Source: Escherichia coli (GTDB lineage Bacteria > Pseudomonadota > Gammaproteobacteria > Enterobacterales > Enterobacteriaceae). Taken from it: 655 nt of DNA. Positions 1 through 300 of the stretch are shown piece by piece; position 1 is the first letter of the stretch, and each line of letters starts with the position of its first letter. The DNA lies in assembly GCF_003334255.1 (NCBI RefSeq), contig NZ_QOWU01000202.1; one strand, written 5' to 3'. The notes below the pieces were generated by a model, which worked only from the letters and a program-made list of their open reading frames with translations, did no database searches and was not told the origin of the DNA. Both the position numbers and the translations under genes were made by a program.

Positions 1-300
1 CGCCAGCGCGATGTTGCTGCGCTCGATGCAAAATACTCGAGGGAATTAGCCGATGCGAGAGCTGAAAATGAAACTCTGCGTGCTGATGTTGCTGCTGGTC
101 GTAAGCGCCTGCGGATCAACGCCACCTGCTCCGGTACCGTGCGTGAAGCCACCGGCACCTCCGGCATGGATAATGCAACCGGCCCCCGACTGGCAGACAC
201 CGCTGAACGGGATTATTTCACCCTCAGAGAGCGGTTGATGATGATGCAGAAGCAGCTGGAAGGGGCACAGGAATATATCCGCACTCAGTGCCTGAAATAA
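1..300 (+). CDS. Rz: Rz-family i-spanin (inner-membrane spanin subunit), C-terminal ~99 codons; 5' end lies upstream of the window
   Basis: Frame 1 is open from position 1 to TAA at 298-300. Translation: RQRDVAALDAKYSRELADARAENETLRADVAAGRKRLRINATCSGTVREATGTSGMDNATGPRLADTAERDYFTLRERLMMMQKQLEGAQEYIRTQCLK*. From memory this closely resembles the periplasmic C-terminal half of phage lambda Rz (e.g. ...DVAAGRRRL..., ...PRLADTAERDYFTLRERL..MQKQLEG...). It contains a fully embedded +1-frame lipoprotein gene, the hallmark of Rz/Rz1 pairs. Two Cys residues (ATCSGT and RTQCLK) sit where lambda Rz has its periplasmic cysteines. Not in the supplied ORF track because the start codon is outside the window. 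Confidence 0.88.
   Translation, partial: RQRDVAALDAKYSRELADARAENETLRADVAAGRKRLRINATCSGTVREATGTSGMDNATGPRLADTAERDYFTLRERLMMMQKQLEGAQEYIRTQCLK
39..43 (+). promoter_or_regulatory. Shine-Dalgarno sequence for Rz1, located inside the Rz coding sequence
   Basis: GAGGG at 39-43, with a 9-nt spacer to the ATG at 53-55. Spacing and sequence are typical of an E. coli-type ribosome-binding site. Confidence 0.55.
53..112 (+). other. Rz1 lipoprotein signal peptide plus lipobox (type II signal peptidase substrate); predicted lipidated Cys at codon 20
   Basis: MRELKMKLCVLMLLLVVSA followed by C. The -3 to +1 residues V-S-A-C fit the lipobox consensus [LVI][ASTVI][GAS]C. The +2 residue is Gly, not Asp, which is consistent with Lol-dependent outer-membrane sorting. 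Confidence 0.7.
53..238 (+). CDS. Rz1: Rz1-family o-spanin (outer-membrane lipoprotein spanin subunit), embedded in the +1 frame of Rz
   Basis: ORF 53-238 (61 aa, TGA at 236-238) lies entirely inside the Rz reading frame, shifted +1. Translation: MRELKMKLCVLMLLLVVSACGSTPPAPVPCVKPPAPPAWIMQPAPDWQTPLNGIISPSESG. Signal peptide with basic n-region (R,K), hydrophobic core and lipobox V-S-A-C (Cys codon 110-112). The mature part is about 29% proline and contains the motifs CVKPP..PPAWIMQP..PDWQTPLNGIISPSE, which I recall as near-identical to lambda Rz1. GAGGG Shine-Dalgarno at 39-43, 9 nt upstream of the ATG. An alternative in-frame ATG at 68 would give a shorter signal peptide; 53 is preferred because of the SD and the basic n-region. 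Confidence 0.88.
   Translation: MRELKMKLCVLMLLLVVSACGSTPPAPVPCVKPPAPPAWIMQPAPDWQTPLNGIISPSESG

Follow-up and report, generated by a model that had tools for sequence, protein, structure and literature searches.

Does the spanin gene pair in this stretch of Escherichia coli DNA carry the cysteines through which the lambda spanin is covalently linked, and what do such residues say about whether the pair is functional or a prophage relic? We analyzed the whole stretch of 655 nt, hereafter the window, which holds the 3′ part of an Rz i-spanin gene, a complete Rz1 o-spanin gene embedded in it and the start of a terminase gene (Table 1). On the comparisons described below, we consider it highly probable (about 0.9) that the window contains the distal part of a two-component spanin of the lambda family, whose subunits would form cysteine-linked homodimers as they do in lambda.

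Table 1. Features of the spanin locus and its flank (positions in the window)
Feature	Position	Strand	Basis and remarks
Rz i-spanin gene, 3′ part	1..300	+	residues 57-155 of 155 aa; stop 298-300
Shine-Dalgarno-like GAGGGA	39..44	+	sequence read and lambda DNA alignment; 8 nt before the Rz1 ATG
Rz1 o-spanin gene, complete, 61 aa	53..238	+	ORF list and translation; inside Rz, +1 frame
Rz1 lipobox V-S-A-C (residues 17-20)	101..112	+	fits the consensus [LVI][ASTVI][GAS]C (PMC6139136)
Rz1 Cys20 codon	110..112	+	equivalent to lambda Rz1 C20
Rz Cys99 codon TGC	127..129	+	equivalent to lambda Rz C99; first helix/linker junction
Rz1 Cys30 codon TGC	140..142	+	corresponds to lambda Rz1 C29; shares bases with the Rz Val103-Arg104 codons GTG CGT
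Rz Cys153 codon TGC	289..291	+	corresponds to lambda Rz C152; antepenultimate residue, outside the Rz1 overlap
Intergenic spacer, Rz to small terminase gene	301..601	.	outside the spanin
Terminase small subunit gene, start	602..655	+	CDS L001:4602-5453; phrog_370 7.4e-118; context only

The Locus and Its Gene Neighborhood

Frame 1 of the window is open from the edge to a TAA, and its translation (nt 1-300), RQRDVAALDAKY...RLRINATCSGTVREAT...YIRTQCLK followed by the stop, represents the last 99 residues of Rz. The full gene is found at L001:3833-4300, where L001 denotes the corresponding locus of Escherichia phage PhiR12_3. The Rz1 translation begins MRELKMKLCVLMLLLVVSACGSTPPAPVPCVKPPAPPAWIMQ and ends SESG before its stop codon, and the entire protein of 61 aa reads MRELKMKLCVLMLLLVVSACGSTPPAPVPCVKPPAPPAWIMQPAPDWQTPLNGIISPSESG. 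Ahead of its start codon, the predicted Shine-Dalgarno-like GAGGGA pairs with lambda AAGGAG in the DNA alignment.

The window is 100% identical to positions 30013-30667 of the PhiR12_3 record (PV340552.1; 61,979 bp, deposited as a “complete genome”), a phage for which a literature search found no describing paper. The same 100% identity was observed in about a dozen E. coli chromosomes, and similar DNA was detected in 4,534 of 5,426 complete E. coli genomes, for the most part on the chromosome. The gene order in PhiR12_3 is holin (L001:2596-2802), endolysin (a lysozyme gene, L001:2807-3340), two small ORFs, Rz/Rz1 and then the small and large terminase genes. PHROG families for holin and endolysin were matched in this locus, which places Rz in the setting of a lysis cassette. 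The two small ORFs (L001:3533-3679 and 3694-3825; 48 and 43 aa; phrog_1115 and phrog_4906) occupy the position at which VT2-Sakai has the ant anti-repressor gene.

Downstream of Rz, the spacer had no Rfam match and no promoter-like or terminator-like site, and across the whole window the Rfam (E up to 1), promoter, terminator and repeat scans returned nothing relevant to the finding. In some relatives, the spacer is interrupted by a 552-nt gene for a Rha-family transcriptional regulator (L084:1977-2528). Carriers of this insert include E. coli UPEC-245U and many Stx2a-converting phages, in which the match is split in two and extends over about 1,374-1,381 bp rather than 655. The phage of the window lacks the Rha-family gene, and its spacer resembles a moron-type insertion site.

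Two long ORFs on the minus strand, at 46-516 and 224-520, were judged not to be genes; they lie antisense to Rz/Rz1, and their sole match was one PHROG without assigned function, limited to the stretch opposite Rz. For the ORF at 46-516 (156 aa) this match was phrog_17757 (7.1e-44), and the ORF most likely belongs to a family of shadow ORFs rather than being a gene.

Assignment of Rz and Rz1 to the Lambda Family

Both proteins were assigned to known spanin families over nearly the full length of the profiles. Rz matched Pfam PF03245 (Phage_lysis) at 8.5e-50 over residues 29-153 (model positions 1-125 of 126) and phrog_13, “Rz-like spanin,” at 1.5e-75, and Rz1 matched PF06085 (Rz1) at 3.7e-21 over residues 20-60 (model positions 1-40 of 41) and phrog_3198 at 1.7e-31. 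NCBIfam gave zero matches for either protein, and a sequence search of the PDB yielded weak coiled-coil matches alone (E > 0.05), none of them the solved structure of an Rz relative.

The N-terminus of Rz, which lies upstream of the window in L001, is MSRVLCVVIIVLAGGCGALWLA, a hydrophobic stretch that aligned with the membrane segment of lambda Rz. In Rz1, the cysteine of the canonical lipobox aligned with lambda C20 and is the predicted lipid-modified N-terminus of the mature protein. As the residues at +2 and +3 after this cysteine are Gly-Ser, the inner-membrane retention signal, an Asp at +2, is absent. Mature Rz1 is proline-rich, with 12 Pro in 42 residues. The signal peptide has a further cysteine, Cys9 (nt 77-79); both Cys9 and the lipobox Cys20 were missing from the cysteines listed in the original prediction.

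Equivalence of the Cysteines with Those of Lambda

The proteins were compared with lambda Rz and Rz1 (NC_001416) by BLASTP, and the genes by DNA alignment. Rz and Rz1 are each 70% identical to their lambda counterparts, over 153 residues (E = 4e-76) and 61 residues (E = 3e-26), respectively; these E values, together with the presence of the cysteines in identical columns, indicate that the match to lambda did not arise by chance. The original prediction had located cysteines in the motifs INATCSG and RTQCLK of Rz and VPCVKPP of Rz1 and had proposed that they are positioned as in lambda. All three motifs are present in the translations, with the cysteine codons within 98-300, and the alignment paired C99 with lambda C99, C153 with C152 and C30 with C29, leaving none of them at a non-conserved position. 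The positional equivalence of the cysteines with those of the lambda spanin is thus confirmed. The shift of one in the numbering of C153 and C30 results from a single 3-nt indel in the linker, which falls after the Rz C99 codon and before the Rz1 C29/C30 codon and adds one residue in both frames. The numbers of cysteines are also the same as in lambda, with exactly two in the periplasmic part of Rz and exactly one beyond the lipobox cysteine in mature Rz1.

Dual Coding in the Overlap

From 74 loci, 36 distinct Rz sequences of 155 codons were obtained. Among these sequences, which are related to one another, diversity at third codon positions was 0.024 within the Rz1 overlap vs 0.191 outside it, an eight-fold drop (Mann-Whitney p = 2.4e-7), and the difference between inside and outside was much smaller at first and second positions. 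Low third-position diversity is what purifying selection on the embedded Rz1 predicts, and both frames appear to be under selection. Mosaic recombination, for example one involving the more variable N-terminal membrane segment, could be a partial cause of the low diversity in the overlap.

The Rz C153 codon is TGC in 28 of the 36 sequences and TGT in the other 8, and the C99 codon shows a TGC/TGT change in 2 of 36, with Cys kept at both sites. The Rz1 Cys30 codon is TGC in all 36. However, this codon is composed of bases 2-3 of Rz Val103 (GTG) and base 1 of Rz Arg104 (CGT) and is therefore partly locked by the Val-Arg pair of the other frame, so that its invariance among close relatives is in part an effect of dual coding and offers no independent evidence for selection on Rz1.

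Functional Spanin or Prophage Relic

It had further been claimed that the presence of the cysteines supports a functional, lambda-like spanin complex rather than a degenerate prophage relic. The first half of this claim probably holds, but it draws its strength from evidence other than the cysteines, which taken alone are a weak guide. Proteins named “prophage lysis lipoprotein RzoD” (P0200, P0216 and P0219) have the same cysteine, and RzoD is the lipoprotein of DLP12, a defective prophage of K-12. Because the RzoD-named proteins keep the equivalent residue, retention of the cysteines does not in itself discriminate between an active phage and a relic.

The gene pair could accordingly be a relic in spite of its cysteines, sitting in a decaying prophage and either intact by chance or only recently inactivated. 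The cysteine of the RzoD-named proteins leaves room for such a reading, and the wide and mainly chromosomal occurrence of similar DNA in E. coli genomes is in line with it. We regard it as unlikely, given that the window is identical throughout to a phage genome deposited as complete and that the holin, endolysin, Rz/Rz1 and terminase genes there are all intact. In addition, both overlapping frames are open, with no frameshift or stop seen, and are accompanied by the Shine-Dalgarno-like site and the lipobox. Taken together, the open frames, the diversity pattern of the overlap, the full cassette and the identity with the phage record suggest that the spanin pair is probably functional.

Conservation of the Cysteines in Relatives

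A related concern is that the cysteines were simply retained, through recent ancestry and the dual-coding constraint, without selection for disulfides, in which case they would be uninformative on function. The locked and invariant Cys30 codon is what such passive retention would produce, and the closest relatives are 86-100% identical. These relatives are 80 loci on viral contigs of IMG/VR, containing 38 distinct Rz/Rz1 pairs, for which both frames were extracted from the same DNA with tblastn anchoring. All four cysteines (Rz C99 and C153, Rz1 C20 and C30) are present in 80 of 80 loci, exactly two periplasmic cysteines occur in Rz at 79 of 80, and mature Rz1 has one beyond the lipobox at 80 of 80, counts that come from close relatives and hence from non-independent samples.

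Comparisons at greater distance were made with two further sets. The close set comprised, for each protein, 120 cluster representatives together with the query and lambda, at identities of 83-98% for Rz and 68-93% for Rz1. Cysteine occupies the C99 column of Rz in 122 of 122 sequences and the C153 column in 119, the three exceptions being two truncated proteins and one with Gly. In Rz1, the C20 column is Cys in 122 of 122 and the C30 column in 103. The distant set consisted of the query, lambda and 57 near-full-length Rz representatives at 36-70% identity (59 aligned sequences in all). Here C99 is Cys in 52 of 59 sequences, which puts it among the ten most conserved columns, and the C-terminal cysteine is found in 43 of the 48 sequences that reach its column; both counts are lower bounds, as several of the gene calls in this set are evidently frameshifted or chimeric. 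That C99, C152 and C29 are conserved among lambda-family spanins has been published before (Kongari et al., 2018; PMC6139136).

Among the 19 Rz1 sequences of the close set that lack Cys30, 14 have Gln instead, and 13 of these 14 have a cysteine three residues earlier. The linker cysteine thus appears able to shift its position, and the gain of a cysteine three residues upstream in most relatives that lost Cys30 suggests that a cysteine is maintained in the linker. A sister group of Rz1 proteins (P0168-P0183, P0192 and P0227) shows Gln for Cys30 in the region corresponding to window 131-142, with the sequence ..PVCPPQTKPP... A few relatives (P0128, P0131, P0155, P0169 and P0190) have no linker cysteine at all, which fits the redundancy reported for lambda but shows that the residue is not indispensable.

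In view of these data, passive retention seems quite improbable as an account of the cysteines. Rz Cys153 lies outside the overlap, and Cys is kept there through the TGC/TGT changes seen in the diversity set. The conservation of both Rz cysteines extends to the distant set, and the Rz1 proteins without Cys30 have mostly gained a cysteine nearby. Moreover, genetic work on lambda shows that the bonds are important (PMC5295617; PMC6139136). We favor the reading that the cysteines serve covalent homodimers of a lambda-type spanin.

Rz relatives of 164 aa (L025 and four other loci; P0003, P0006 and others) have a 9-residue C-terminal extension past the conserved cysteine (..QCTKLAFYYPED..). In lambda, by contrast, the number of residues that follow C152 is reported to be under tight constraint.

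Disulfides in Lambda and a Proposed Mechanism

For lambda, Rz C99, Rz C152 and Rz1 C29 are reported to form intermolecular disulfides (PMC5295617; PMC6139136; each with reference to Berry et al., 2013). The bonds are described as homotypic, linking Rz to Rz and Rz1 to Rz1, with none between i-spanin and o-spanin, and their formation as dependent on the Dsb system of the host (PMC5295617; PMC6139136). Function is reported to require only one of Rz C152 or Rz1 C29 (PMC5295617; PMC6139136), and the C99 link is called “irrelevant” for function (PMC5295617, after Berry et al., 2013). The wording of the original prediction, which places the disulfides “within the spanin complex,” is acceptable, but it must be narrowed to homotypic bonds, with no bond between Rz and Rz1 (PMC5295617; PMC6139136). 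A heterotypic disulfide that joins Rz to Rz1 as a covalent bridge between inner and outer membranes, which is one way to read the title of that prediction and which periplasmic cysteines in both proteins might invite, is very improbable indeed, because all three lambda bonds are homotypic in these accounts, no such link was found in lambda or T4 (PMC6139136), and many two-component spanins have cysteines in one subunit only (PMC6139136).

For the phage of the window, the analysis shows the sequence, the frames, the positional equivalence and conservation of the cysteines and the gene context; disulfide formation and lytic function are inferred from lambda, and we propose the following sequence of events for the homodimer reading. 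By homology, Rz1 would be exported, cut before Cys20, lipid-modified and sorted to the outer membrane, and Rz would be tethered to the inner membrane through the hydrophobic segment at its N-terminus. In the periplasm, the host Dsb system would make the bonds of covalent homodimers, Rz-Rz through Cys99 and Cys153 and Rz1-Rz1 through Cys30. The C-termini of the two homodimers would then bind each other, giving a heterotetramer that spans the periplasm. Once holin and endolysin have acted and the peptidoglycan has been removed, the spanin complex would disrupt the outer membrane, probably through fusion of the two membranes. The required bond is expected to be that of Cys153 or that of Cys30, either being enough, and the Cys99 bond is expected to be dispensable.

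A Possible Polar Contact between the C-Termini of Rz and Rz1

At the C-termini, Rz Thr151 (window 283-285) and Rz1 Ser60 (window 230-232) constitute a polar pair that replaces the E150-R59 salt bridge of lambda. Across the 80 IMG/VR loci, the residues at Rz 150-151 and Rz1 59-60 combine as RT with EN at 51 loci, RT with ES at 27, RA with EN at 1 and NE with ER at 1, so that the sole lambda-like NE tail of Rz is paired with ER in Rz1. These pairings agree with the “charge-to-polar” covariation at E150/R59 described for lambdoid relatives (Cahill et al., 2017; PMC5295617). There is perhaps an even chance that this clade differs from lambda in having a polar C-terminal contact (Thr151 with Ser60 or Asn60) together with an Rz1 linker cysteine that is tolerant of position, so that the bond would be required only at some point within the linker. 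The polar contact and the movable cysteine extend the work of Cahill et al. (2017) and Kongari et al. (2018) and imply no new mechanism.

Consequences for Annotation

The Rz/Rz1 pair of the window is an ordinary lambda-family spanin of a known kind, and public databases contain identical sequences. It is intact and of the lambda type, with all the cysteines used for covalent homodimerization, and the value of the analysis is mainly corrective, for annotation. The embedded Rz1 gene (L001:4053-4238 in PhiR12_3) is unannotated both in PV340552.1 and in the RefSeq record of VT2-Sakai, NC_000902.1. Rz itself is labelled “endopeptidase” in several records, and “endopeptidase Rz” in that of PhiR12_3.

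In VT2-Sakai, orf48 (L003 2788-3048; 86 aa; phrog_6954) is not embedded and lies downstream of Rz, yet it is labelled “Rz-like spanin.” Both this label and the PHROG derived from it appear to be mis-annotations. In the window, the frame of orf48 is shortened to 34 aa (288-392).

Comparison with Known Spanins

Among the closest known systems is that of lambda. Shared with it are the location of Rz1 wholly within Rz in the +1 frame, 70% of the residues in both proteins, the lipobox cysteine, Rz C99, the C-terminal Rz cysteine and the Rz1 linker cysteine in the same columns, a proline-rich mature o-spanin, and the placement of the pair after holin and endolysin. The window differs from lambda in the one extra linker codon and in the Thr151/Ser60 pair in place of the E150/R59 salt bridge. 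The surroundings differ as well, with a class II holin and a lysozyme of 177 aa as endolysin, both of the Stx-phage type, two small ORFs between R and Rz, and a terminase gene following where lambda has bor.

The order from Rz to terminase is shared instead with Stx lambdoid phages of the VT2-Sakai/933W group. VT2-Sakai is 92.6% identical to the window in DNA over its whole length but has the ant gene between R and Rz, and many Stx2a phages differ by the Rha-family regulator gene in the spacer after Rz.

A more remote comparison is offered by PseT.3/PseT.2 of T4, which gave no sequence match to Rz/Rz1 in the searches run. It is likewise a two-component spanin that depends on homotypic intermolecular disulfides (PMC6139136). 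In contrast to the pair described here, its subunits are encoded by separate genes, and all of its periplasmic cysteines are in the o-spanin, both being essential (PMC6139136). The T4 spanin is thus a functional analogue that stands outside the lambda Rz/Rz1 family.
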